64,000 nucleotides of DNA from an uncultured virus (IMG/VR IMGVR_UViG_3300031555_010821) (IMGVR_UViG_3300031555_010821); one strand, 5' to 3'. Positions 48,781 to 63,042 are shown, numbered from the stretch's first letter. The notes: a model not told the origin generated them from the letters alone. Numbers and translations: made by a program.

Positions 48781-50259
48781 TTACTTGTCCTCCTTTTTAT
48801 TCATCTGACGGTCGATCATGCGCTGACGAGCATCAGCGGAAGAGGAGCCGTCACTCTCGTCTTTGCGAGAGTCCTTGTTGAACATCTGGCGCTTCTGGTA
48901 ATCGGTGTCCTTCTGGGAACGGGCATTCACATCAGCGATGGCGTAGTCATACGCGGCGTTGATGTAGGCTTCGCTCTTGCCGTCCAGGTTCATGGTGGGA
49001 CGGACTGCCAGAATGATCGCCTTCTTGGCGGCGGAGATACTCATGTTCTCCAGGCCGTCCATATTCAGCTTGCGGCCCAGAAGACCGAGCTGGATGCGCT
49101 GACGAACGATGGCGTCAACAGAGTCCACATTCAGTACGGACTTGCCGACCTGAGCGGCGTTGGTGGACGGGACCACATCATCATCGTCGTCCATTTTGTC
49201 GCAGTCGTCATTGGCAACGGCAGCGCCAATCACAGGCTCATCTTCCTCGTCCTCAACGACTTCAGCCGGAGTCTCCACAGCGGGAGTCTCGACGACTTCC
49301 TCAGCGTCGACCTTCTGGAAGTCTGCCTGAGCAAGCAGCGTGTCGATGATATCGAACAGAATGCCCATATCTTCGTCCTGCTGGGCAATAACGCCCTTGG
49401 CGGTGTCGACATCCTCGGGATCGCCTTCCTCATCTCTGCGGTCACGGCGGTCCTTCACAAGCTGGACCTTCTCTTCGGGAGTGACTGCTTCTTCAGCAGC
49501 GGGCTCTTCGTCCTTAGCGACGACGGGTTCGGTGACAGGCTCTGCGGTGGGCTCGACCTCAGAGTCTGCCTTTGCGGCAATGCGCTCGGCACGACGAGCC
49601 TTGTACTCTTCGATTGCCTTGGCGAACTCCTCCGGGGTCAGAGTGCCGTCGGTGCGATGAGCCTTGGTCTGTGCCTGGGGGGTGGTGGTTTTGCTCATGA
49701 CTTTTCCTCCTTTAAGAGTGTTATCTGGGTCGCGGCTGTCAATATTCAGCCGTGCCTGCTCACCGGCTCTGGCCTCGCGGACAAGTGCCAAGTGATTGAT
49801 GCGGATGTTTCTCTGGATGGCGTCATAGTGCTGACCTTCCCATTCGCCGGGATTCTCCTCCAGATCGAGGTTGTAGCCGAGCGACAGCTCTTTTAAGCCG
49901 GCGTCCTGCATTCCGTCGGTGTCATGGATGATGATTTCAGCACGAACGTCATCATTACTGCGGTATCCCTCGGTCAGAATCGTACCGATCTGGTTCTCCT
50001 TCACATTATCCTTCGTGACAAGCCCTGCGTCATGAGTGATAATGATAGGACGTCCCTTATACGATTTCAGACTTTCGGGATCAAAAACATCCTCAGGGAG
50101 TCGCAGCTCCCGCCTGATGCTTCCATCAGGGTTCTGATATTCGAAGATACCTGTGCTGGTCAGAATCGGCCGATCCACAAGGTAGCCTTCGGGCGTGAAA
50201 TAAGTCTGGCCCAGCGGCAGGCTGTCCAGACGAATCACCTTACTGAGTTTCGGGGTCAT
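48781..50259 (-). CDS. Prohead protease/scaffold (DUF2213-like)
   Basis: TPEGYL, ELSLGY, INHLALV..ARAG; acidic scaffold tail. Confidence 0.9.
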   Translation of the reverse strand: MTPKLSKVIRLDSLPLGQTYFTPEGYLVDRPILTSTGIFEYQNPDGSIRRELRLPEDVFDPESLKSYKGRPIIITHDAGLVTKDNVKENQIGTILTEGYRSNDDVRAEIIIHDTDGMQDAGLKELSLGYNLDLEENPGEWEGQHYDAIQRNIRINHLALVREARAGEQARLNIDSRDPDNTLKGGKVMSKTTTPQAQTKAHRTDGTLTPEEFAKAIEEYKARRAERIAAKADSEVEPTAEPVTEPVVAKDEEPAAEEAVTPEEKVQLVKDRRDRRDEEGDPEDVDTAKGVIAQQDEDMGILFDIIDTLLAQADFQKVDAEEVVETPAVETPAEVVEDEEDEPVIGAAVANDDCDKMDDDDDVVPSTNAAQVGKSVLNVDSVDAIVRQRIQLGLLGRKLNMDGLENMSISAAKKAIILAVRPTMNLDGKSEAYINAAYDYAIADVNARSQKDTDYQKRQMFNKDSRKDESDGSSSADARQRMIDRQMNKKEDK

Positions 50260-50294: not shown

Positions 50295-50600
50295 TTAGTC
50301 GGTCGGATCGCTATTATCGGCGTCTTCCGCCGTTTTCGCATGGTTCAGATCTCCCTCAGCAAAGACGCTGCCCTCACCGTCGGTGTTGGTGACTTCCTCG
50401 CCAAAAGACAGCAGCTTTGTAAGCTGAAGAGTCAGTACCTGCGCATGTTCCATTTCGTCCAGAAGCAAGCCTTCATAGACTGATGCAATGCCGGTATCGC
50501 TCTGCTCCGCTTCCTGGATCGACAACACCAGGGACTCAATCTGTTCGCAGACCTTGCCGAGCTGGCGGCTCATACCCATGATTGCAAATGAGTTCTTCAC
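50295..50600 (-). CDS. Hypothetical protein
   Basis: GTG start after AAAGGAG. Confidence 0.65.
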   Translation of the reverse strand: MKNSFAIMGMSRQLGKVCEQIESLVLSIQEAEQSDTGIASVYEGLLLDEMEHAQVLTLQLTKLLSFGEEVTNTDGEGSVFAEGDLNHAKTAEDADNSDPTD

Positions 50601-50653
50601 AGCTTTCGCTCCTTTCTTCAGAATTGGTGCAGGTGCCAATGGCTTTGCCAACG

Positions 50654-50836
50654 TCACTTGCCATATTTGTCTCGATGAAAGGTATCCTCCCATTCGTAGA
50701 ACTTATCTCTGGTCACAACATCCAGCTCGCACTTTTTCTTACATCGTTTCGTCGATGCTTTGCAAATGCAGATGGTCTTGCCCTTCTTCACATTGACGTA
50801 GACTCGAATCTTTTCATGTGTTTCCATGTCGGTCAT
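50654..50836 (-). CDS. Small Cys-rich hypothetical protein
   Basis: AAGGA RBS. Confidence 0.55.
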   Translation of the reverse strand: MTDMETHEKIRVYVNVKKGKTICICKASTKRCKKKCELDVVTRDKFYEWEDTFHRDKYGK

Positions 50837-50850
50837 TCCTTTGGTAATGT

Positions 50851-51807
50851 TTATACAGGCATAAGCGGTGAGCCTGAGCGGTCATATTGGCTTTTCATTG
50901 GTAGGTCAATTGTGTCGATGTCGAACACCGGAATTGCTACGCATCTACAAGCAAAATCCTCGCCGGGATTGCAGCGTCGGCCCGTGTAAATCCTGCCGGC
51001 GCTCTTTGTTTCATACCACATCTCAGGCGGCTCATCCCAGGAGAACACCTTCCCGTTCAAATCATGGTGGCATTCACGCACTCTCGAATCGTGCGAGTCA
51101 GACCACCGATACTTGGTGCAGCCTGCGTCCTGCTGCTGCATCTTCGAGATCTGAGCGTTCAGCGTCGAAACCTGGTCACGAGCAAGAAGCTGTGCCTTTC
51201 GGCGCGATAGCTTGTACTCTTCCTGGATTGCTCGGGCAATATCAGTGAGCGTAGAACCTCTCCGATAACCGTTCAACACGATTCGCTGCATCTCGCCAAG
51301 TGCCTCGGTCGGGATGCTTTTTATCTTCAGCACGTTTTCATCCACCCAGCGGCGTAAGGCCGCTTCGTAGAATTCGGCGCTGTAATAGTCGTTCATAAGG
51401 TCGATGCCAAGTGTTTCGCGGACCACCCTTTTCCACTCTCTGAGCGAGGTGTTCTTAGTCATCCGTGAAATCTTGTCAACAAGTTCCGCGAGGCCGTAAG
51501 CAGACATTTTCTGCTCCAGCTCTTCCGCGATCTTTTGAAAAACGCGGCGGACTTCTTCCTCCTGATCGCGGAGATCATCATATCTGGCGTCCACCCGTTG
51601 CGCTTGCTTATACGACGCAAGCAGCTCCGGCAAATAGTCTGCCAGAGTCTTGTTCAGCAGCCGCATATAGCCGTTCGTTACTCTCTTGAACTCGCGTTCC
51701 GCCGAGTCCGGGTACTGAGGGGTTCTTTTGCTTTTAATGCTGCTGTGACCGTAGAACTTGCCCTTGACAGCCTTTTTTACCATCTCCTGGTGTTGGAGTT
51801 TGTTCAA
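50851..51807 (-). CDS. MuF / SPP1 gp7-like minor head protein
   Basis: ARDQ, YRW...DSRVRECH, PGEDFACRCVAIPV. Confidence 0.92.
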   Translation of the reverse strand: MNKLQHQEMVKKAVKGKFYGHSSIKSKRTPQYPDSAEREFKRVTNGYMRLLNKTLADYLPELLASYKQAQRVDARYDDLRDQEEEVRRVFQKIAEELEQKMSAYGLAELVDKISRMTKNTSLREWKRVVRETLGIDLMNDYYSAEFYEAALRRWVDENVLKIKSIPTEALGEMQRIVLNGYRRGSTLTDIARAIQEEYKLSRRKAQLLARDQVSTLNAQISKMQQQDAGCTKYRWSDSHDSRVRECHHDLNGKVFSWDEPPEMWYETKSAGRIYTGRRCNPGEDFACRCVAIPVFDIDTIDLPMKSQYDRSGSPLMPV

Positions 51808-51855: not shown

Positions 51856-51931
51856 TGGAGCTGGTGGACGGACTCGAACCGACGACCTGCTGATTACAAA
51901 TCAGCTGCTCTACCAACTGAGCTATACCAGC
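51856..51931 (-). tRNA. trnT: tRNA-Thr(UGU) with encoded CCA
   Basis: 76-nt cloverleaf; anticodon arm GCTGA-TTTGTAA-TCAGC; TTCGAGT T-loop. Confidence 0.93.
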
Positions 51932-51977: not shown

Positions 51978-52001
51978 CTATTATTGGGTTGTGTAGAGTT
52001 A

Positions 52002-52136
52002 CTAGTCGGCGTCAGAAGCACCGACCAGCTTGGCGACAATCTCGCCATCTACCTCGATATGAACGGTCTGAGTCTGGCAGATGTTGATGTAGTCGTCGAG
52101 ATTCACTTCAAACTGTTCAAGAGTTACTTTAAGCAT
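52002..52136 (-). CDS. 44-aa Phd/YefM-like protein
   Basis: Read manually; GGAGG RBS; MLKVTLEQFEVNLDDYINICQTQTVHIEVDGEIVAKLV. Confidence 0.55.
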   Translation of the reverse strand: MLKVTLEQFEVNLDDYINICQTQTVHIEVDGEIVAKLVGASDAD

Positions 52137-52172
52137 CGGCTGCTTCCTCCTCGAAAATGCGTCCATGTCGTC

Positions 52173-52388
52173 TTAGTCATCAGGAAAATCAGGCCGCCAT
52201 CCAGCAGCATACTTTTCTTTGTACTGATTCAAACTGAGTTCATTCGCACAACACTCTTCGTCGGGATTATCCAACTGGTATGCGTCGTCCTGCCATCCGC
52301 ACTCATCGCAGATGTCGTAGGAATCTCTATGCTCAAACTCATATTTCCCGCAGACGGGACACAGATGCGGTCCGCGATTTCCCATCAC
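52173..52388 (-). CDS. CPCC-family Cys-rich protein (putative immunity)
   Basis: CPVCG...YDICDECGWQDD...ANELSLNQ. Confidence 0.85.
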   Translation of the reverse strand: MMGNRGPHLCPVCGKYEFEHRDSYDICDECGWQDDAYQLDNPDEECCANELSLNQYKEKYAAGWRPDFPDD

Positions 52389-52399
52389 TTGTCATCCTT

Positions 52400-55300
52400 T
52401 CAACTACCTGTTTTGGATTCAGTGGCCTTTTTATTTTGGAAAACTCTGTTCGCTGCTGCAATATCGACGGCGCCTTTCTTCCTATTGTATCTCAGATGGA
52501 AACAGGTTTTTATAGCTCCGCCGGGGACTCCAACTGCAAGCTCGCCGGTTTTGGTGTTGAAGCGGTAAATCTCGCCGTCTTTGGAAAGAAATCCATCGAT
52601 GTCACCACCGCACGGTTGCTTGAGGAAATCAATTGCGTGTTGAACATACTGTTCTTCATTAAGGCCGGAATACTCATGGCCGTGGGAACGGAAATGTTTC
52701 TTCCGCTTCTTCTTATCCGCGAAGTCAAGGCAAGGCGTGTTTTCGCCGTTTGCGGAAGGTTTCGGCGTGGAGCCACCTATCTTTCCGGGACGACCTCCAT
52801 GGTTGTGGTTGCCGGAATTGCTGTTCCCTTCGTCTGAGTTTTCCTCTATCGTTATCGTAGCTGTTCTTGCGGATTTGTCAATAGATTTTTCGGAAATATT
52901 CGGATTTGTTGAGCCGTCGGTATTTCCTTTTTGACGAATGGTAATCATAGGGTACTCATTGCCATTCGGAGCTGTATAAGTTCCTTTCCCAACTACTTCG
53001 AATTTTCCTCCGACGAAGCTCTCCTCCTGTGACGTGGCATAGGCGCCTGCATAGGGAGAAACATCGAACTGTTTCGTAGCTCCGACAGTCTTGAACACAA
53101 CAGGATCTTCCATATATGCGTACTCATCGGAGTTTTCATCCAGCATCGAGTTTGTTACTTTCGAGTTCCTTGTAAAGCTCCGAAGCTCGCCATTGAACTG
53201 CAATTCTTGCCCGACTTCAGCAGAGGAAGCCGTGAATCTGCTTTCTTCAATCCGATACAGAGGCTGATCGGTTTCGGACATATTGTTCTTTATGAACTCG
53301 ATATCGTCTTTCTCTAAAATGTCTCCAACAGAGTATCCGCCTCCGACAAAAGATTCCATTCTTGAAGCAAAGCCCTCAGGTTCAATTCGCTCACCTGAGC
53401 CCTTAACATCAAGGGAGCTTTCTTTTGTGTCTTTGTCAGATATAACATGAGCGAGCTCTTCTTCGGACAGGGACCTTCCGCTATTCGGCGAAGTCCAATT
53501 TCCGTCGTCGCCAAGTTCAAAGGTGTCGTTGTAGGTTTCATCCATATCGCGGTCGTAGACCGATACGGTTACTTTCGAACCTTTTCCGCACTTCTTTAGT
53601 TCGGAAGTGACTTCACCGCTTGTCTTGCTTCCAAGATTGTTTTCTCCGCCATTGGGAGCAGAGCCTCCCACCTGGCCGGGTACGCCCTCGTGGTTATGGT
53701 TGCCGCTATCGGGCCCCCCGTCCTCTTCAAAAGGGCAGACGCAATCCTCCAGCACTTTGAGGCCATCCGCAAACGGTTGAAAAAGCGATGCCGCGAGGTC
53801 ATGGATTTCTTCCAGAGTGCGGAACGTAGGATTGGTCATCTCCAGATCTACACAATCCGGTTCGCCCTCATAATCGGTGCAAAGGAACAGATACGGAGTC
53901 AGGCCAGTGTCGGGCTCAACAGGGCCAGTCCCGATCGGGATGAGTGCTTTCGGGCTGATGCCGAATTCCTCTTCCGTTTCGCGGAACGCTGCCTGTTCAG
54001 GGCTTTCGCCCTTCTCGCCATGACCGCCAGGACCACAAATCAGACCGTAGCCGAAGTCATTGTGGCGAGTTCCTGTCAGGATCTTGCCCTCTGAAACCAC
54101 GAGGACGCCCACAGAAAAGGGTTTCCCTTCCCCTTGGGTTGAGTTATACCCTTCTGCGTTATCTTGGTTTTCCGCCCTTTTAGCGGATTTTTGCGCCGCT
54201 TCTTCGGCCTGTTCGACCTCTTCTGCGCTCATATCCTGAGGCAGTTTCGTAGCCGCCGGAGCATTGGCAGGAGCGCTGCCTTCTGTACCGGGATCTGTGG
54301 CATGGGCGTTAATGTCAACACCCTGAGCGTACTGAGCGAAATCACCAGACTCGAAGATGCTAACCGGGTTGGTGCCCGATGCCTCCATGCCGGTGTATGC
54401 GGCCATCAGATCGTCCTCATCTTCATATTCGTCCAACAAGGTTTCGATGTCGAACTCGCTGCTGTCAGCCAATTTGCGGCGGACCTCAGACGGGTCAACT
54501 GCTTCCATGCCGACGTAAATCTGAGCAGTCTGGGCTCTTACCTGGGCAGTTGCCGCTTTCTGCTGGTCAAGAGTGGCCTTTTCGGTATCACTCATAGACC
54601 ACAGCGGATTGAATTCGATCTTGATTTTTGGCACTTCATCCACTTCACCGGATGCAATGCCCGCTTGAAAGACGATGGAGAGCAAATACCGCAGGTTGCT
54701 CTTAATCATTCTTTTCTGGATGCGCTCGACGAAGTTGTACCAGTTTTCCAGATCGCTCTCGCCAGTTGAATTCATGCCGGCCGGAGAACGACCGAACAGA
54801 ATGGTCTGGGGAATGTTGGTCAACGCCGACAGATAGTTGCAAGCAGAGTCGATGACGTCAGCAACGCCAGAGAACTGGAAGGAACGGAAGTCATAATCTT
54901 CGCCTTCGCTGTCAATGGTGATGCTGTTCATCATGCCGCGAGCCATGTCGATTGTCTGAAGTCTGCGGAGCACTTTGCTCTCGCCTTCTTCAGTAGCCAA
55001 CTCAGCAGCCAGGTCTTTCATCTTATAGACCGGCTGAACAGATCTGTCGAGCATTCTAGGTGCGCTGCGATGTGAAATCTCAGCGTCCTGGATGGCCTTG
55101 TGGATGCGGATGTATTCAGGCATACCCCAGAACTGGTAGATGGAGTTCGTAGAATTCTCGGGCAAAATGCCGTTCTGGAAAACTAGGCAACGGCTCTCAT
55201 GTACCGTAAAATTTCCGTATCTGCTATATACGGAGTAGAATTCAGGCATACCGAGACGACTGCCGCGAGTGCGGAACGGATCTCTCGGGTCATAGTGGAA

Positions 55301-55819
55301 CATGCTCTCATAATCAGGCTGGATAACTGAGCGATCATAAACACGAATGTCGTCAATGGACTTGATGTGCTTCCAATCCAGAGGCTCCTCCAGACCGTGG
55401 CCGTCATTGATGAGCATGACAGCAATAGAGCCGCCAAACAGACGCGCCCACTTGATGGCAGTCATGGCAGTTTCTTCCCAATCAAGCTCGTCAAGAGCTT
55501 CCTGGTAAAACGATTCGACTTCCTCATCCGATACATCACTCAGCGTGAAGCCGTGTTTCAACGCCTCTTCCGCAGGGGCGTCGATGATTTTGGCGAACAG
55601 GCCATTGCCCTCATAGAACATTGTCAGGGACTCATCTGGAACGGTAACTTCGGGCACAAAAATGTACCGCTCGTGGCTGTCCTTTTCAGTGCCGTATCGG
55701 TTCAGGAGGTTCATATAGCCGTCAGCACGGTATGGTCTGACCGCCTTGCCGGCCTGCTTTTCCAGAAGTCTGGCGTAGGCCATCATGCGGTCTACCTGCT
55801 GCTTTTTCTTATCGCCCAT
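52400..55819 (-). CDS. DUF1073-type portal fused to Nudix, ART-like and RNase-toxin-like domains
   Basis: Follows terL; WARLFGG, IPQTILFGRSPAGMNSTGESD, FNPLW; perfect Nudix box; YR/SFT/QEE; KHFRSHG. Confidence 0.9.
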   Translation of the reverse strand: MGDKKKQQVDRMMAYARLLEKQAGKAVRPYRADGYMNLLNRYGTEKDSHERYIFVPEVTVPDESLTMFYEGNGLFAKIIDAPAEEALKHGFTLSDVSDEEVESFYQEALDELDWEETAMTAIKWARLFGGSIAVMLINDGHGLEEPLDWKHIKSIDDIRVYDRSVIQPDYESMFHYDPRDPFRTRGSRLGMPEFYSVYSRYGNFTVHESRCLVFQNGILPENSTNSIYQFWGMPEYIRIHKAIQDAEISHRSAPRMLDRSVQPVYKMKDLAAELATEEGESKVLRRLQTIDMARGMMNSITIDSEGEDYDFRSFQFSGVADVIDSACNYLSALTNIPQTILFGRSPAGMNSTGESDLENWYNFVERIQKRMIKSNLRYLLSIVFQAGIASGEVDEVPKIKIEFNPLWSMSDTEKATLDQQKAATAQVRAQTAQIYVGMEAVDPSEVRRKLADSSEFDIETLLDEYEDEDDLMAAYTGMEASGTNPVSIFESGDFAQYAQGVDINAHATDPGTEGSAPANAPAATKLPQDMSAEEVEQAEEAAQKSAKRAENQDNAEGYNSTQGEGKPFSVGVLVVSEGKILTGTRHNDFGYGLICGPGGHGEKGESPEQAAFRETEEEFGISPKALIPIGTGPVEPDTGLTPYLFLCTDYEGEPDCVDLEMTNPTFRTLEEIHDLAASLFQPFADGLKVLEDCVCPFEEDGGPDSGNHNHEGVPGQVGGSAPNGGENNLGSKTSGEVTSELKKCGKGSKVTVSVYDRDMDETYNDTFELGDDGNWTSPNSGRSLSEEELAHVISDKDTKESSLDVKGSGERIEPEGFASRMESFVGGGYSVGDILEKDDIEFIKNNMSETDQPLYRIEESRFTASSAEVGQELQFNGELRSFTRNSKVTNSMLDENSDEYAYMEDPVVFKTVGATKQFDVSPYAGAYATSQEESFVGGKFEVVGKGTYTAPNGNEYPMITIRQKGNTDGSTNPNISEKSIDKSARTATITIEENSDEGNSNSGNHNHGGRPGKIGGSTPKPSANGENTPCLDFADKKKRKKHFRSHGHEYSGLNEEQYVQHAIDFLKQPCGGDIDGFLSKDGEIYRFNTKTGELAVGVPGGAIKTCFHLRYNRKKGAVDIAAANRVFQNKKATESKTGS

Positions 55820-55844
55820 TTGCTCTCACCTCTTCTTGCTGTTG

Positions 55845-57248
55845 TCAGATCAGATTGCTGACGTTGAATACATTCTTGGTCTCGATCTCCGCAAAGCCGT
55901 TTGCAGAGGCGTCGACCATATCTTTGAACTTACTGTCAGGGAAGTTCTCAAGCTGATACAGATACTCTTCGTTCCAAGGGCCGTACAGGATGTCAAAGTT
56001 ACCTGCCTGCCACTGTGCAGCCATAGGCTCAGCTCGGGCCTCCTTGCTGCCGGTTTCTGCGACCGCTACCACATCGAAGCCTGCAAGGAACTTGATGTAG
56101 GATTCCGCTTGCTCCTTACCGGCTTGGCCGGGGTCCTTCGGGAGGCGGATGCGGACACGCTTATATGCTGCGCGGTCTGTCTGTGCCGTCAGCTTAATCA
56201 GCTTTCGCACATCAGACGCGGACAATTGTTTGTTGATAACATCTGCGATAAGGTATCGGCCATTCTTGCGTTTGCCGATCAGGACGCCTGCCGTATAAGC
56301 AGGATCGCCGTCCATTGTCTTTTCGGTCGCCGCCAAGTCCCAACACCGTACCCATTGGATGATGTCCTGTGGCACTTTCTCCAGAACCTCGCCGAGCTGA
56401 GTCCGCTTGAAAAACAGACCGGCTGCAGCCTTGATTTTCCAGTTGCCATGCAGCAGACGCTCACGCTCGATCAGAGGCAGTGCGTTCAGGTTTGCCAGAT
56501 AGCCTGGGTTAATCTTCAATAGGGCCTGATTGTCATAAATCGTGGACATGATGAAGGTCACAGACTTAGGCTCGCCGCGCTCTTCGGGAGTTACCAGATT
56601 GAATCGCTCCCAAAGTTCTTCCTGGGTATCTGCCCAATGGACGATTTCTTCACGGCGGACAAAGTAACGGATCTTTCCGCTTCGCTCAGGAATCGGATAG
56701 CCTGTGTCCTGGTCGATCCACCACTCAATGAACTTAGCTACCCAGCTATCCGCATCAGGGTTGCACGTTGCGCGAATGAATGGCGTTACGCCGCAAGTGG
56801 AACGGTTTCGGGAGAGCATATAGAAGAAAGACTTCTCTGAAAAATGCGTCAGCTCATCGAAGCCGATCTCACAAATCTGTGAGCCCTGCCACTTTGCCAG
56901 GTCGATATCACGTTCAATATGAGCAAAGGATACTTTCGACAGAATTCTTCCTTCAGAATTCTTGAACACCCACATATTGCGGGACATCTTTGGCTGAGCG
57001 CCTCTGATTCCTTGATACAGGTTGGAAGCCTCATCCCAAAGGCCACCCTGTGCAAAGATCTGGTTGAAGTTCTTTCGGAATATGGTACAGCCGAAGCCTG
57101 GTACATTCTTATATCGAAGCGGTGACAGTAGGAGTCCATACGACTTTCCACCGCCAGCGGCGCCTCCGTAGATACAGATGTCTGCCTCTGTGGCCAGGAA
57201 GTCAGTTTGCGGACCTTCCTGCGGCTTTAGAATCCGTGGCATATGCAT
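55845..57248 (-). CDS. terL: Terminase large subunit
   Basis: YGGAAGGGKS, FDELTHF, ATCNP, WDLAAT, KDMVDA. Confidence 0.95.
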   Translation of the reverse strand: MHMPRILKPQEGPQTDFLATEADICIYGGAAGGGKSYGLLLSPLRYKNVPGFGCTIFRKNFNQIFAQGGLWDEASNLYQGIRGAQPKMSRNMWVFKNSEGRILSKVSFAHIERDIDLAKWQGSQICEIGFDELTHFSEKSFFYMLSRNRSTCGVTPFIRATCNPDADSWVAKFIEWWIDQDTGYPIPERSGKIRYFVRREEIVHWADTQEELWERFNLVTPEERGEPKSVTFIMSTIYDNQALLKINPGYLANLNALPLIERERLLHGNWKIKAAAGLFFKRTQLGEVLEKVPQDIIQWVRCWDLAATEKTMDGDPAYTAGVLIGKRKNGRYLIADVINKQLSASDVRKLIKLTAQTDRAAYKRVRIRLPKDPGQAGKEQAESYIKFLAGFDVVAVAETGSKEARAEPMAAQWQAGNFDILYGPWNEEYLYQLENFPDSKFKDMVDASANGFAEIETKNVFNVSNLI

Positions 57249-58221: not shown

Positions 58222-59334
58222 TCAGTAAGTCAGGCCGAGAATTGTCTTGGCCGGATTCGCTTCATGTGTCTTGCGGTACTCCAGACTTTCCAGGTACTCG
58301 CCTTCTGTGCAGATGCCGGTTCGATGCTTGTAATCGTATCGCAGCGCCCAGCTTCCTTCTTCGAAGAATGCTTTCTGGAACGGTCGAAGTGCATCGTTCT
58401 CCACCAGGTTCATCTCCCAATCTGTGTGGCCAGCTCGCTTACCCTGAATCGTGTGAACGTCGAAAACGTATTCAGGAATTTTACCGCCCTCAAGAATGCA
58501 TTTTCGAATATCGATCAGTTCACAGGGAACGTCTGTATGGTCAATGGTTTCAACCAGATCGATATACGGAGTAGATCTTACCGACTTGTACTTTCCACTG
58601 AGCGCATACATCAGAATCATGATGGCCTTGGACTGGAAGAGAGGGTCGCGCTTATCGGGCGTCAACTTCTTGTTCGTGAAGTTATCCGCGTTGATGAGTG
58701 CGTCGATTTCATTCGCATAAGCACCGCCAGTGAAATCTTCATCAGCAGCCTTGATGACCTTCCAGATCAGATCATGCTTCAATGTGGTCAGCATCTTGAT
58801 TGCGTAGCCCGAATCTTCCATATTGCATTCGCGGATGGAATGATAAAGCAGATGGGCATAGACATCATGGGTCTGAGCGTCATAATCAAAGATTCCGCCG
58901 ATCTGTGCATCAGCATCCAATCGTGCTTTGAGCTCCGCTGCATCCTGTGTTGTGCAGAGAGGCCGGCCGGTGCCTTCGTTGTCACTCAGAATGAAGTTGC
59001 AGGAATAATAACAAGCGTCCCTGCTCTTGAGCGCATCGCACAAGAGAGAGACGGCAACTGAAACATATCCACTTTTCTTGCTGTATCCCTTCAGTCCTTC
59101 ATTGGCTGCCAGATGCTTCTTATACAGAGCATCGACCTCTTTCGTGAGTACGCCCCAGCAATCTTCGGCCGAGACTACATACAGACGCTTCCAGAGTGTA
59201 CCGTCGTAGTTGCCGAACATTTCATAGGCCGCGTAACCGGCCTTCTCCTTGTCGCCTCTGCGAATCGCTTTCTGAAGCAGACTCGCCATGACAAACATAT
59301 TGTGTCCGCTTTTCGTTGTAGGCATATAACCCAT
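58222..59334 (-). CDS. RarA/MgsA C-terminal-like helical protein without ATPase domain
   Basis: SLLQKAIRRGD, WKRL.VVSAED, IPEYVFDVHT. Confidence 0.7.
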   Translation of the reverse strand: MGYMPTTKSGHNMFVMASLLQKAIRRGDKEKAGYAAYEMFGNYDGTLWKRLYVVSAEDCWGVLTKEVDALYKKHLAANEGLKGYSKKSGYVSVAVSLLCDALKSRDACYYSCNFILSDNEGTGRPLCTTQDAAELKARLDADAQIGGIFDYDAQTHDVYAHLLYHSIRECNMEDSGYAIKMLTTLKHDLIWKVIKAADEDFTGGAYANEIDALINADNFTNKKLTPDKRDPLFQSKAIMILMYALSGKYKSVRSTPYIDLVETIDHTDVPCELIDIRKCILEGGKIPEYVFDVHTIQGKRAGHTDWEMNLVENDALRPFQKAFFEEGSWALRYDYKHRTGICTEGEYLESLEYRKTHEANPAKTILGLTY

Positions 59335-59370
59335 TCATTTACCTCCTCATTTGGTTCGGGTTTTCCTTCA

Positions 59371-59404
59371 ATCGTATCGTAGCATAACCTACCGCCATGT
59401 AAAG
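59371..59404 (-). promoter_or_regulatory. Repeated phage promoter, copy 6
   Basis: TTTACA-tggcggtaggttatgc-TACGAT. Confidence 0.65.
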
Positions 59405-59430
59405 AGGAAAGTCAGTCGCCTACTGGTTTT

Positions 59431-60150
59431 TTATCGCGGAACGCGGATGTAGATTTTATTCGACCTCAGGTCGTAATCGAAGTATTTGCCCCACTTGATT
59501 TTCATGCGTTCAAAGCTGGCAATCATACTTGCGCGGCTCTTCTTGGAGTTACCACCCTTGTTGGTGTCAGTTCCACCATGAGAGCAGAAATACTTCGGCT
59601 TGAGGACGATGCGGTTTTTCAGCAGTTCCTGGAACACAACATCAGTATCACAGCAGTATCCAATTTCATCGCTGAACTTGGATTTGTACACCTTGCGGTT
59701 AATCCAACAGATGCCGCCCGATGTACCTGCAAAAGCAAATTCAGAGTTGTAGTTCCAGGGGGCGATGGTGGCATCCACACATCCATATCCGATGTCCAGA
59801 TCTACCATCAACTGAGCGATGCGCTCAATCTCCGACGTGACGATCTCGGGGTTTGTGACCCGTTCGTTCTTATCAAGACGGTAGATAACGTCGGCCATGT
59901 CATCACCAAGGGTACAGATGATATCCTCTTCTGCATTCTCAATGACCCAATTCCAAACCTTGGAGACGCTGTTAATCTTTTCGTCCTCGACCGCGATGAG
60001 GTTCTCACGCGGAATGGTCTGAGCATACAACTCATATTCCGACTCGCGGACTACTACCTTGTAGTATTCCAGGAGTGTATGGGTGACAATTGTGTCGTAC
60101 CTTTTATAGCTCGGGATATAGATGCCTAACGGCCTGTACTCTTCTCCCAT
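59431..60150 (-). CDS. TAGT/GREB1-like GT-A glycosyltransferase
   Basis: IYIPSYKR, LGDD, DTD, TNKGGN, KWG. Confidence 0.78.
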   Translation of the reverse strand: MGEEYRPLGIYIPSYKRYDTIVTHTLLEYYKVVVRESEYELYAQTIPRENLIAVEDEKINSVSKVWNWVIENAEEDIICTLGDDMADVIYRLDKNERVTNPEIVTSEIERIAQLMVDLDIGYGCVDATIAPWNYNSEFAFAGTSGGICWINRKVYKSKFSDEIGYCCDTDVVFQELLKNRIVLKPKYFCSHGGTDTNKGGNSKKSRASMIASFERMKIKWGKYFDYDLRSNKIYIRVPR

Positions 60151-60151
60151 G

Positions 60152-60853
60152 TTAACCTCCGTTCACTTTCCACGACGGTGGGAGATTAAACCCGCAGTTG
60201 AAAATGTAGTCGATCGCAGACAGGTTTTCAACAAAGTCGCCGTGAATTTGGGGGTATACAATCGGCTCATAGTCCGTGTATACCAATTGGATGCCTCTCT
60301 TGACATAATCCTCTTCAACGTGGTACGCCATAGCCCCTGTACCACTGAGGTAGGTATCCGCACCTAATTGCTCGCACATTTGGAACAGCCGCTCATCTTT
60401 ATGCCCGGAGATATCAAGATCTGCGGAAGCCCGCAGGGTCTTTGCAGTAATGCCGAATCGATTCATGCAATGCATAATGAGCTCGATGTTCAGCTCCGTC
60501 ATTTTGAGCTGATCGGCGCCGGCCATCTTACGCATGATGTCTGCCAGCTCCATCCCTTCCTCAAAGAACGGGGCCTTCCGATACTCCTGGTCAATGGTCT
60601 TTGCCAGCTTCGGCAGATTATACTTAGGGTCGCTGACCATGACATCGATCAGCGGATCGTCATGATGTGCAGTGACCGGAACGGTCAACTTCTTTGGTCC
60701 TGCTGCTGTGTAGATGCGGTTCCAGTTATGCATCCCGCTTTTTGAAAATGCAACATCGTCGGAAAAGACGAGGACGTTGCTCCGGGATGCTTTATAGAAA
60801 AAGCCCATGTAAGGCAAGAAATTGGGCTGATGTGAAGCGAGAATCATGGGCAC
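60152..60853 (-). CDS. wbqC: WbqC-family protein
   Basis: HQPNFLPYMGFFYK, DDV.F, NRI, LTVP, YRKAPFF, YLSG.G..Y, LSAIDYIFNCG. Confidence 0.9.
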   Translation of the reverse strand: MPMILASHQPNFLPYMGFFYKASRSNVLVFSDDVAFSKSGMHNWNRIYTAAGPKKLTVPVTAHHDDPLIDVMVSDPKYNLPKLAKTIDQEYRKAPFFEEGMELADIMRKMAGADQLKMTELNIELIMHCMNRFGITAKTLRASADLDISGHKDERLFQMCEQLGADTYLSGTGAMAYHVEEDYVKRGIQLVYTDYEPIVYPQIHGDFVENLSAIDYIFNCGFNLPPSWKVNGG

Positions 60854-60854
60854 C

Positions 60855-61517
60855 TCACTTCAGTTCGCGGATAAGCGCAAATGCCTCAGCCGCTTCAACG
60901 CCTACCGTTGTCCCCCTGTACCGAGCCAGCGCTTCAACAGCCTTGATTGACCGTGCCTTGGGGAACGGCTCTTCCTGGGATTCATAGATGCGCAGCGCTT
61001 CGAGCTTGAGGAACGCCGTTTCCGTGATGTCTTCGTAGACAGTCGGTATAAAAGCATTTCCTTCATTCGGAATATCCCAGCCGGTTTCGGAAGGAACTTC
61101 GTAGGCGTACACCCGTTTTACCCTGTGGGAGTATTTCGGGCGGAGGGCTACCATTGCCGCATCGGCCACCGCTTTGTGGTCAAGGTGAATGTCTCCCCGA
61201 TGCGGGATATAAACCTCGTCGGGCATTTCGCTCTGAATGGCAATCAGCAGCTCCTCCGTGAGCTTATGCTGCGGAATCGTACTGAGCTCAGATGCCGGCT
61301 GGCTTCCAAACAGCAGTCTTTTTACACCTAGGAGGCGATTCGCTTTGACCGCTTCCTCTCTGCCTTTTTCAATCAGGGCCTGATCGAACAGCGGGGCGTA
61401 TCCTCTTGTCACAATGTAAACGACCACTTTATCTCCGGCGGCTACCCTTTTTGCAATCATGCCGCCACAGCCCAGGACTTCATCGTCCGGGTGGGGCGCA
61501 ATAACAAAAACATTCAT
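60855..61517 (-). CDS. PIG-L/LmbE-family deacetylase
   Basis: APHPDDEVLGCGG, HLDH, YESQ, AEAF. Confidence 0.93.
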   Translation of the reverse strand: MNVFVIAPHPDDEVLGCGGMIAKRVAAGDKVVVYIVTRGYAPLFDQALIEKGREEAVKANRLLGVKRLLFGSQPASELSTIPQHKLTEELLIAIQSEMPDEVYIPHRGDIHLDHKAVADAAMVALRPKYSHRVKRVYAYEVPSETGWDIPNEGNAFIPTVYEDITETAFLKLEALRIYESQEEPFPKARSIKAVEALARYRGTTVGVEAAEAFALIRELK

Positions 61518-62146
61518 TTGGAGCTCCGCTTCTTTTCCACAGCCGGAACGCCTGCGACAAAAGCACCAGCAGGAACGTCGTTCAGGACGACTGCGCCTGC
61601 CGCTACTGTGGCTTCATCGCCAATGCTGTAACCGCTGACGACCGATGCCTGACATCCGACGTAGCAGTTATTGCCGATGTGGACGCCGCCGCAGATATTG
61701 CAGCCCATCGAAATGTTGTTGTTGTCGCCGACCACGCTGTCTGTCGCAAGGACGGCCTTGCAATTGACGATGTTGTGGTCTCCGAGCTTGGCGGAAGCAT
61801 AGATAATCGCAAACTTGTAGATGTAATTGCCTGTGCCAATCTCGGCGCCTTCCTCGATGCAAGCAGTTTTGTCGATCAGATTCACCGAATCCAGACCAAG
61901 GCGCTTGATTTCATCGTAGTAGCGTCTTCTCGGCTCAATGTTGCCGATGGCGATGAAATACTTGTGTTCGCGGTACTGCTCGATGTCCGTAATCTTTTGA
62001 TAAACGGGAACACCTTCCACAGTGCCGGTTTTATAGTCATCAACGAAAGCCAGCACATGAAAGCCGTTCTCCGTTGCCAGTCTTTTGCAGATGCGGCCCT
62101 GCTGGCCTGCACCGCAAATTACGATATTAACAGCATCATTCTTCAT
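61514..62146 (-). CDS. PglD/NeuD-family sugar acetyltransferase
   Basis: IVICGAG, FVDD, IAIG, hexapeptide repeats, GVPA. Confidence 0.9.
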   Translation of the reverse strand: MKNDAVNIVICGAGQQGRICKRLATENGFHVLAFVDDYKTGTVEGVPVYQKITDIEQYREHKYFIAIGNIEPRRRYYDEIKRLGLDSVNLIDKTACIEEGAEIGTGNYIYKFAIIYASAKLGDHNIVNCKAVLATDSVVGDNNNISMGCNICGGVHIGNNCYVGCQASVVSGYSIGDEATVAAGAVVLNDVPAGAFVAGVPAVEKKRSSK

Positions 62147-62831
62147 CCGTCCAGACCTCCTGCTCTTCAGTTTCCTCGGAGAGTTCTTCGGGGACGGTCT
62201 GTTCCTCCGGCTGCTCCGAAGGCTTCTGATATCCAGGCAGCTCTTCGAACGGAATGATCGCCGCCTGCATCTGATCGTACCAGATTGCGCGGGCGTTAAT
62301 CTTTCTGTTCGCAATTCTGACCTTGGCGCCCTCAATACCGAGAGCTCGTACCAGGTTGTTATAGTCCAACTGATTGCGGCAGACGATCATGACGTAATCG
62401 TACTTCTCGTAATGGATGAGCTCCATTTCCTTGATGTCACGCTCATTGACCGGCTTCTGCTTGTCGACCTCTTCGCGGAGCGTCATGTCCATCATGTTAT
62501 CAACGCCCCAATCGTTCAGAATGTCCAAATCCCAATCACCTGCGTGGGTGTTGAGCTTGACGTTGACCACTTTCTGTTCCTGAACCGTGAAGCCGATTAG
62601 CATTTTGCAGTCCACCATCATGTCGGGATCCTGCTCCTGGAAGATGGCCACACGCTGATTTCCGCCGATTACCTGGTTCTCTTCATTGATAACGATGATG
62701 TCGAAATCGCCGTACATGTCGAGCGATGCCTTGAGGTCTTTCTTTCGCTGTGTCTTAATCTTTCGGGGATTCCCGAAGTCAAGTCGCAAGTCACCAACGC
62801 GGCGCTTGACGACCTCAATGGTCTTTTCCAT
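62136..62831 (-). CDS. ParB/Srx-domain protein
   Basis: NPRKI...L.ASL..YG...IVIN...IGGNQR...N...GDWD. Confidence 0.82.
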   Translation of the reverse strand: MEKTIEVVKRRVGDLRLDFGNPRKIKTQRKKDLKASLDMYGDFDIIVINEENQVIGGNQRVAIFQEQDPDMMVDCKMLIGFTVQEQKVVNVKLNTHAGDWDLDILNDWGVDNMMDMTLREEVDKQKPVNERDIKEMELIHYEKYDYVMIVCRNQLDYNNLVRALGIEGAKVRIANRKINARAIWYDQMQAAIIPFEELPGYQKPSEQPEEQTVPEELSEETEEQEVWTDEE

Positions 62832-63042
62832 TGCTTGCACCTCCATGTTCATAAAAAAAGCACTGCTCATCAGCAGTGCATCGTGGATTTCCCGTCCCCT
62901 AACGGTTCATCCGATTTTTCTGTTTTACAAAATAGTACATGAAGTGCGTGTCTTTCAATGACATTTAGTGCGATTACATGACATTGCATGACAGATTCAG
63001 GAAATATTTTGTGATTTTTGCGCCCGAATGGCTTCATCGCCC

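Follow-up and report, generated by a model that had tools for sequence, protein, structure and literature searches.

The 64,000-nucleotide stretch of uncultured virus DNA IMGVR_UViG_3300031555_010821 (hereafter the window, at its full length) encodes a phage portal protein with three enzyme domains behind its core. The gene is a single open reading frame (ORF) at window 52400-55819 on the minus strand, with an ATG start, 1139 amino acids (aa) and no internal stop. It joins a portal, a Nudix hydrolase domain, an ADP-ribosyltransferase (ART) fold and a terminal BECR-fold RNase-toxin domain, and we hold these identities with high confidence. The nearest named phage is Faecalibacterium phage FP_Brigit. 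We suggest that the protein is the portal of a Brigit-like myophage of gut Clostridia and probably doubles as a polyvalent effector carrier, with cargo that would be packaged, released and injected. The parts of the ORF are the following.

52400..55819 (-), whole polyvalent portal ORF, 1139 aa; identical copies in locus L002 and virus record G001
54542..55624 (-), portal core; Pfam Phage_portal_3 at residues 66-426, E 9.2e-78; PHROG 146/15528 portal
54143..54433 (-), acidic Ala/Pro-rich spacer, residues about 463-560, without a family match
53729..54142 (-), Nudix hydrolase domain, residues ~560-697; Pfam NUDIX
53654..53722 (-), linker copy 1, residues 700-722
53438..53620 (-), small alpha/beta sub-domain, residues ~734-794
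52913..53395 (-), ART-fold domain, residues ~809-969; R856, S881-F882-T883, Q931-E932-E933
52841..52900 (-), second junction motif N-I-S-E-x-x-I-D-K-S, residues 974-993
52763..52831 (-), linker copy 2, residues 997-1019
52415..52720 (-), predicted BECR-fold RNase-toxin domain, residues ~1034-1135, from profile, Foldseek and VIA matches to PDB chain 8ey4_A

Domains of the portal-borne cargo

The portal core and the Nudix domain are recognized directly by existing family models. The Phage_portal_3 match reaches 261.9 bits against a cut-off of 33.8 and covers profile positions 4-356 of 357. The spacer behind it holds 22 D/E against 4 K/R in 98 residues, and a related bare portal of 454 aa (L013) stops at about this place. 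Pfam NUDIX matches residues 568-630 with 44.3 bits against a cut-off of 21.1 (E 2.3e-11, or 2.4e-12 with the piece alone). The Nudix box, G-x5-E-x7-R-E-T-x-E-E-x-G-I at residues 599-621 (window 53957-54028), is complete, with T at the first 'U' of what we take to be the consensus, G-x5-E-x7-R-E-U-x-E-E-x-G-U.

Residues ~809-969 are an ART-fold domain of a family without an existing profile model, and with its conserved triad and modelled fold it is probably active. An exhaustive protein search with residues 700-1010 returned 191 proteins at E<=1e-3. Among 37 scanned homologues of residues ~805-965, the family lies mostly behind MuF-type domains (23 of 37), with 21 proteins carrying Phage_Mu_F and 2 Phage_min_cap2. 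Phage_portal_3 was found in 2 more and DUF5662 in 1, and most of the 11 without a family are stand-alone proteins of 170-220 aa. In an alignment of 26 sequences (A2), conservation reaches at least 90% at R132, E134 and E209, and F158 does not vary. Inspection of the rows by eye finds the S of S-F-[S/T] in 23 of 26 and [Q/E]-x-E kept. The AlphaFold model built from this alignment has a predicted local distance difference test score (pLDDT) of 80.4, and Foldseek matches it to 80 PDB chains at E<=1e-3, with VIP2, Certhrax, Plx2a, C3, iota and CDTa at the top. VIA gives a top Z of 10.5 and 105 chains at Z>=8. The best 50 of these 105 are all R-S-E ADP-ribosyltransferases, aligned over 136-146 residues (model residues 85-245) at Z 10.5-9.0 and a root-mean-square deviation (rmsd) of 3.0-3.5 A. 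The 84 BFVD matches at E<=1e-3 include T4 ModA/ModB-like proteins, MuF fusions and two portal fusions. R856, S881-F-T883 and Q931-E-E933 lie in strands 131-135, 155-159 and 209-213 of the model, as expected for ART strands 1, 2 and 5. The corresponding motifs lie at window 53246-53260 (LYRIE), 53171-53182 (RSFT) and 53018-53032 (SQEES).

Searches at the level of sequence returned little for the same domain. The ART profile has no match among PDB sequences, a protein homology search with the domain alone gave a single match of 145 aa, and a cluster look-up of 8 homologues gave no names. No match was found among 50,697 phage records. The small alpha/beta sub-domain in front of the ART fold is modelled with helices and strands at pLDDT 67-89, and the structure atlas gave no usable match for residues 724-805. 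In other large proteins, too, this sub-domain accompanies the linker (matches spanning query 1-79/80). In three MuF fusions (P0007, P0049 and P0058) the ART family stands upstream of a second, classical ADPrib_exo_Tox domain, which resembles the two-ART-domain build of VIP2/iota-type toxins.

The terminal domain is, by its structural model, a colicin D/CdiA-CT-type BECR RNase-toxin fold. The model of the last ~105 residues was made from 9 distinct sequences and reaches pLDDT 85.4, with a layout of H22-36, H41-53, four strands and H106-120, in which an N-terminal helix precedes the sheet. In a wide VIA search the CdiA-CT chain 8ey4_A is the sole chain of 48,161 at Z>=8 (Z 11.6, rmsd 1.6 A, 85/88 residues), followed by the tRNase colicin D at Z 7.1 and 6.2 and then by RelE/BrnT-type toxins. 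Foldseek likewise places 8ey4_A first (E 2.1e-3, prob 1.00) and colicin D next, and a sequence profile (A3) matches 8ey4_A at E 0.02. H28 and H32 are invariant across the 9 aligned sequences, all 9 of which have T or S at position 91. By sequence, the conserved residues appear to match the active-site pattern that section 19 of PMC5512222 and passages of PMC3482391 give for colicin D-like and phage BECR domains. The motifs KHFRSHGHEY and IKTCF are encoded at window 52670-52699 and 52499-52513.

For the BECR domain, too, most searches by sequence returned little. Pfam at E<=10 shows no Colicin_D or PBECR match, and the structure atlas lists Colicin_D clusters at ranks 13 and 16 only (scores 0.91 and 0.90). 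The whole 440-residue tail, residues 700-1139, has no match in Pfam (E<=10), NCBIfam or PDB sequences. A protein homology search with residues 1025-1139 gave 0 at E<=1e-3 among 81 candidates, and among the 50,697 phage records the domain was found in Brigit alone. In one relative (L043:1886-4390) the portal's BECR domain is broken by a stop, and the remainder continues as a 95-aa ORF.

A preliminary description of this DNA, made from the sequence alone, had proposed a portal followed by an acidic linker, a perfect Nudix box, an ART-like segment with R-S-E spacing and an RNase-toxin-like end. All of these parts stand, with the one qualification of the T in the Nudix box. The ART and RNase-toxin motifs lie where they had been reported, the AlphaFold models searched with Foldseek show the two folds that had been predicted, and an immunity homologue adjoins the toxin domain.

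The fusion itself is extremely unlikely to be an artefact of chimeric assembly or a pseudogene-like read-through joining separate genes. The sequence is metagenome-like and some relatives have stops in this region (the L037 group described below, and L043), which would fit such an origin. The same 1139-aa ORF is nonetheless present in two other records, at 100% identity across all 1139 residues in L002 and at 100% and free of stops in G001. Contigs from 4/4 public faecal metagenome runs cover window 52000-56200 at >=99% with 0 letter differences, indels or joints, and they bridge every junction. Single contigs span the BECR-linker-ART-linker part (52365-53750), the ART-Nudix border (53032-53922) and the Nudix-spacer-portal part (54037-54960). 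These run contigs are fragmentary, at a depth of about 3-7, and may in one case derive from the source sample itself. The preliminary description had named a stop or frameshift behind the portal core as grounds for giving up the fusion; neither was seen in the two records or in the contigs of the 4/4 runs, where depth is low and patchy. The same architectural logic also recurs in dozens of loci.

Cargo exchange and the CPCC partner gene

Variable C-termini among homologous portals had been anticipated, and the comparison bears this out. Related portal ORFs range from 454 aa (bare) through ~750 aa (portal and Nudix) up to 1181 aa. On a shared portal and Nudix, the distal ends comprise two ART-like kinds, a DUF4258-like end, an 'EIHWFE' end and an end that we read as JAMM-like (H-x-H...S-x-x-D). 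In L024 and L054, ART cassettes lie between portal and Nudix. The DUF4258-like and 'EIHWFE' ends each precede their own type of small acidic gene. Distal cargo and the downstream small gene are exchanged together, which is the architecture of polymorphic toxin loci. All three features that define such loci are present, namely a conserved N-terminal carrier, a variable C-terminal toxin and a matching downstream partner gene. Among Brigit-like loci with portal cores 97-100% and Nudix domains 88-99% identical, the BECR domains are only 56-72% and the products of the partner gene only 56-74% identical. In the window, this partner gene directly follows the portal ORF.

52173..52388 (-), CPCC zinc-ribbon gene, probable cognate immunity protein, 71 aa; Pfam Cys_rich_CPCC E 1.3e-13

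The sequence relationships of the CPCC gene make it the probable cognate immunity gene of the BECR toxin. Its profile (A4) matches the immunity chain 8ey4_I at E 7.2e-20 and 8ey3_A at E 6.6e-20. Because chain I belongs to the same entry, 8ey4, as the chain matched by the toxin domain, toxin and neighbour are homologous to a solved toxin-immunity complex. A CPCC gene lies <=400 nucleotides (nt) downstream of BECR-ending ORFs in 44/44 cases, which represent about 9 distinct sequence types and include one non-portal polyvalent protein (L050). It is found in 0/12 loci whose portals lack the BECR end. Viewed from the other side, 61/80 CPCC loci in viral contigs have a BECR domain <=700 nt upstream, and in 4/19 exceptions CPCC stands beside or is fused to small acidic genes that follow other portal-borne toxins. 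These four (L102, L103, L080 and L122) have no upstream BECR domain, the small acidic genes belong to the other two portal-borne toxin types, and their CPCC genes look like orphan immunity arrays.

Such loci raise the alternative of a phage-borne polymorphic toxin for competition, in which the virion RNase, with or without the ART, would kill or arrest cells lacking the matching immunity and lysogens expressing CPCC would be protected. The conserved carrier, variable toxin and cognate small gene, with three toxin/partner types at this position, are in line with this alternative. The same is true of the diversification of toxin and CPCC on near-identical backbones, of the orphan arrays and fusions of partner genes (L080, L102/L103, L122) and of the homology of the pair to a contact-dependent inhibition (CDI) pair. 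Related portal genes occur in contigs of metagenome-assembled genomes (MAGs) of 11.6-231 kb from Lawsonibacter, Ca. Avilachnospira, Oscillospiraceae and Lachnospiraceae, as prophages might, and a MuF polymorphic-toxin model for temperate phages is set out in parts of PMC5576092. Against it, CPCC belongs to the late head operon, and no partner gene accompanies the internal Nudix and ART modules. The competition account also overlaps with that of an injected effector carrier, since packaging and delivery are needed by both. We give it limited credence.

Junction motifs and the proposed release and delivery

A motif of ~21 residues, GGPGSGN(F/H)xHxG(R/V)PGxxGGS, stands at both borders of the inserted module of small domain and ART. 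The second junction motif precedes the linker not only here but also in L004, L008, L017, L063 and L064. A second class of matches in the search with residues 700-1010 covers the linker stretch alone. With a loose pattern, the linker motif occurs in 74/151 proteins, in up to 9 copies per protein; the 151 were chosen by similarity to a motif-containing query, and the fraction is not a prevalence. Motif carriers include proteins with ART-PolyVal, ADPrib_exo_Tox, 2H phosphoesterase, zeta toxin, Tad3, PARP, DRAT and MuF domains, and they are polyvalent proteins. Because the motif is conserved between unrelated flanking domains, its sequence argues for a function as a processing site, an exchange joint or both.

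The two DNA copies of the linker share 79% identity over 19 nt at best, which rules out a recent duplication. Within the window the motif has no copy beyond the two in the portal, for example at capsid or protease cleavage sites. The 23-residue linker has no match among PDB sequences, the motif strings were found in no searchable paper, and the word 'linker' has 0 occurrences in PMC5512222. We tentatively suggest that the motif might be a dedicated joint like the VENN border of CdiA toxins, which would mark cassette exchange and be cut by the head protease or by self-cleavage, freeing up to 12 copies each of Nudix, ART and RNase for ejection. Other short motifs also stand between cargo modules, of the W-V-T-I-N-G-T-H-V-L-I-D-E-N-G, H-P-R-D-E-x-G-x-F and G-V-P-G-M-K-W-G types (L050, L037, L054, L001, L011, L004). 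In L004 the last of these falls in Pfam DUF7211 at E 0.0047.

The following sequence of events could link these elements. The C-terminus of a portal points into the capsid. Cargo behind it would for this reason lie inside the head, in up to 12 copies per virion, and packaging in the head is quite likely. The CPCC protein would protect the producing cell from the RNase. As the head matures, the cargo might be cut from the portal, likeliest at or near the junction motifs, by the DUF2213 protease encoded 2 kb downstream. In phage Mu, the C-terminus of the portal is trimmed by the phage's head protease. The freed enzymes would then exit together with the DNA and take effect soon after entry into the next cell, through ADP-ribosylation of a host target, RNA cleavage and hydrolysis of a nucleotide-diphosphate compound. 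The preliminary description had likewise proposed about 12 packaged copies of each enzyme that may be injected, with a Nudix domain that would degrade nucleotide signals or ADP-ribose. For release and injection we see the chances as even. Effector fusions to MuF and portal are predicted to be packaged and injected in parts of PMC5512222 and PMC9503650. The former also describes, in one of those parts, T4 Alt as head-packaged and injected, and the available portion of a preprint (10.64898/2026.04.10.717836) reports a large polyvalent protein in phi24B virions by proteomics.

Several points weigh against an injected effector carrier. The portal stays with the capsid and injection would require cleavage; no peptidase domain was found in the ORF with Pfam, PHROG or NCBIfam, and the junction motif as a cut site is a guess. 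The searchable literature yielded no proteomics of virions, no structure and no assay for either this protein or Brigit gp30. A late-operon immunity gene and an RNase that could harm the phage's own translation fit a competition toxin at least as well. The covalent link between cargo and portal is not always kept: in L037:820-4384 (also L036, L055 and L060), the ART cassette after the portal ends an ORF of 856 aa, and Nudix and BECR form a separate ORF of 342 aa. The two ORFs overlap by about 35 nt in these Brigit-like loci of the L037 group, and either a split gene or a site of frameshifting could account for this. Other points concern the enzymes. The NUDIX match is limited to profile positions 4-67 of 134 here, where relatives match to about 118-124. 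The best NCBIfam likeness of the domain is MutT with 33.5 bits, far under the cut-off of 148, and gives no substrate class. The ART domain has no match in Pfam (E<=10), NCBIfam or PHROG, hhalign of its profile against ADPrib_exo_Tox segments is weak (E 0.021, probability 2%), and its R-to-S spacing of 25 residues is shorter than what we take to be usual for C3/iota. For these last three reasons, ART activity is not assured.

The cargo could alternatively never be released. It would stay attached to the portal, or to portal monomers that have not assembled, and act only in the producing cell or inside the head, for example in late counter-defence or in conditioning the packaged DNA. This would agree with an ORF in which no peptidase domain was found, and the free Nudix-BECR ORF of the L037 group implies that the domains can function unlinked in the cytoplasm. 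Parts of PMC9503650 raise the possibility that ARTs encoded close to packaging genes act instead against immunity directed at the portal or the terminase. The immunity gene, on the other hand, implies that the RNase is held off in the producer cell. The same cargo families also occur on MuF (Phage_Mu_F in 21/37 and Phage_min_cap2 in 2/37), and MuF/gp7 is a head-internal, portal-bound protein according to passages of PMC5576092. A junction motif so conserved suggests processing or exchange over a passive tether. We regard permanently tethered cargo as unlikely.

Known systems and genomic setting

Comparative genomics has previously described portals fused to PBECR, Nudix and ART domains, and the protein is thus a new, richer example of a described class. 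Sections of Iyer et al. 2017 (PMC5512222) report PBECR RNase, 2H and InPase domains fused to portals, and sections of Iyer et al. 2022 (PMC9503650) report NudE-like Nudix domains and ARTs fused to MuF/Portal. A model that spans portal, Nudix and this C-terminal domain already exists in PHROG 15528 'portal protein'. The preliminary description had implied that cargo on the portal rather than on MuF was new, which does not hold in view of these fusions and of the portal-ART fusions in BFVD. The ART family without a model and the junction motif may be the new parts. Neither the junction motif nor the pairing of toxin and immunity at the 3' end of the portal gene appears in the portions of PMC5512222 and PMC9503650 examined. 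No experimental work on any portal-borne effector was found among open-access papers and preprints.

The closest named counterpart is gp30 of FP_Brigit (828 aa), annotated as 'portal protein' only. Its portal and Nudix are 52% identical over residues 11-694 and its BECR domain 43% over 1019-1136. A CPCC gene (gp31) follows it, and the order of head genes is the same. It differs in having neither the ~300-residue module of small domain and ART nor the two GGPGSGN... linkers, with a junction of the H-P-R-D-E-x-G-x-F type instead. The polyvalent proteins of Iyer et al. share with the window's portal two or more effector domains on one polypeptide and a context of virion genes; here, three enzyme domains follow the portal. 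Unlike many of them, the portal has no zincin-like metallopeptidase domain detectable with Pfam, which is frequent there and not obligatory. Its ART and BECR domains match no Pfam model from that work at E<=10 (ART-PolyVal and what we take to be the PBECR models).

The CdiA-CT/CdiI pair of E. coli O32:H37 (PDB 8ey4) resembles the system in toxin fold, in the H-x3-H-G-x-E-[FY] alignment and in the homology of CPCC to chain I. Identity is about 21-25%, and that pair belongs to a two-partner secretion filament in Proteobacteria as opposed to putative phage-head delivery in Clostridia; no paper on 8ey4 was found. Parts of Jamet et al. 2017 (PMC5576092) describe MuF polymorphic toxins of temperate phages, which likewise combine a head-internal carrier with variable C-terminal toxins, whereas portal-borne cargo would need cleavage for release. 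C3/VIP2/iota-type ARTs and T4 Alt/ModA/ModB share the fold and the triad of R, S-x-S and [QE]-x-E. By comparison, the domain here is compact (~160 residues), has S-F-[ST] rather than S-T-S and lacks detectable profile membership.

The locus provides a natural example of a structural phage protein as carrier of swappable enzymes, in phages of abundant gut Clostridia for which a cultured relative, FP_Brigit, exists. Through it, phage heads of Firmicutes are linked to a CDI-type toxin-immunity pair of Proteobacteria, and an ART family comes to light that no Pfam, NCBIfam or PHROG model matched. The junction motif could explain the processing or shuffling of polyvalent proteins.

The window is phage DNA, because it holds head, tail, baseplate and lysis genes with nearly all long ORFs on one strand; the tail, baseplate and lysis genes come after the head genes. 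The portal ORF lies directly downstream of the large terminase gene. It is followed by the CPCC gene, a tRNA-Thr, a short MuF gene, a 132-codon ORF, a DUF2213 protease, a virion structural protein and the major head protein.

55845..57248 (-), large terminase, upstream neighbour; Terminase_6N/6C (Pfam)
51856..51931 (-), tRNA-Thr (UGU), between the CPCC gene and MuF
50851..51807 (-), short MuF head-morphogenesis gene, 318 aa; Phage_Mu_F at residues 175-292, E 3.6e-21; phrog_324
48781..50259 (-), head maturation protease (DUF2213), E 2.8e-33; phrog_530 'head maturation protease' E 9.4e-80

MuF is indeed short, as had been described: Pfam finds no domain besides Phage_Mu_F in the 318-aa protein, and no cargo. 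The tRNA-Thr was considered as a toxin-resistant spare tRNA and rejected, since among 17 scanned loci it is present only in the window's own copy (L002), with no tRNA at other BECR loci. The 132-aa ORF between MuF and the protease (window 50295-50693, minus strand) has an acidic C-terminus and no Pfam or PHROG family. Upstream of the terminase genes, window 58222-62870 on the minus strand carries genes of sugar- or DNA-modification type, namely a TET-associated glycosyltransferase (TAGT), a WbqC-like protein, a PIG-L deacetylase and a PglD-like acetyltransferase. Judged by these gene families, this run may be a candidate DNA hypermodification cluster.

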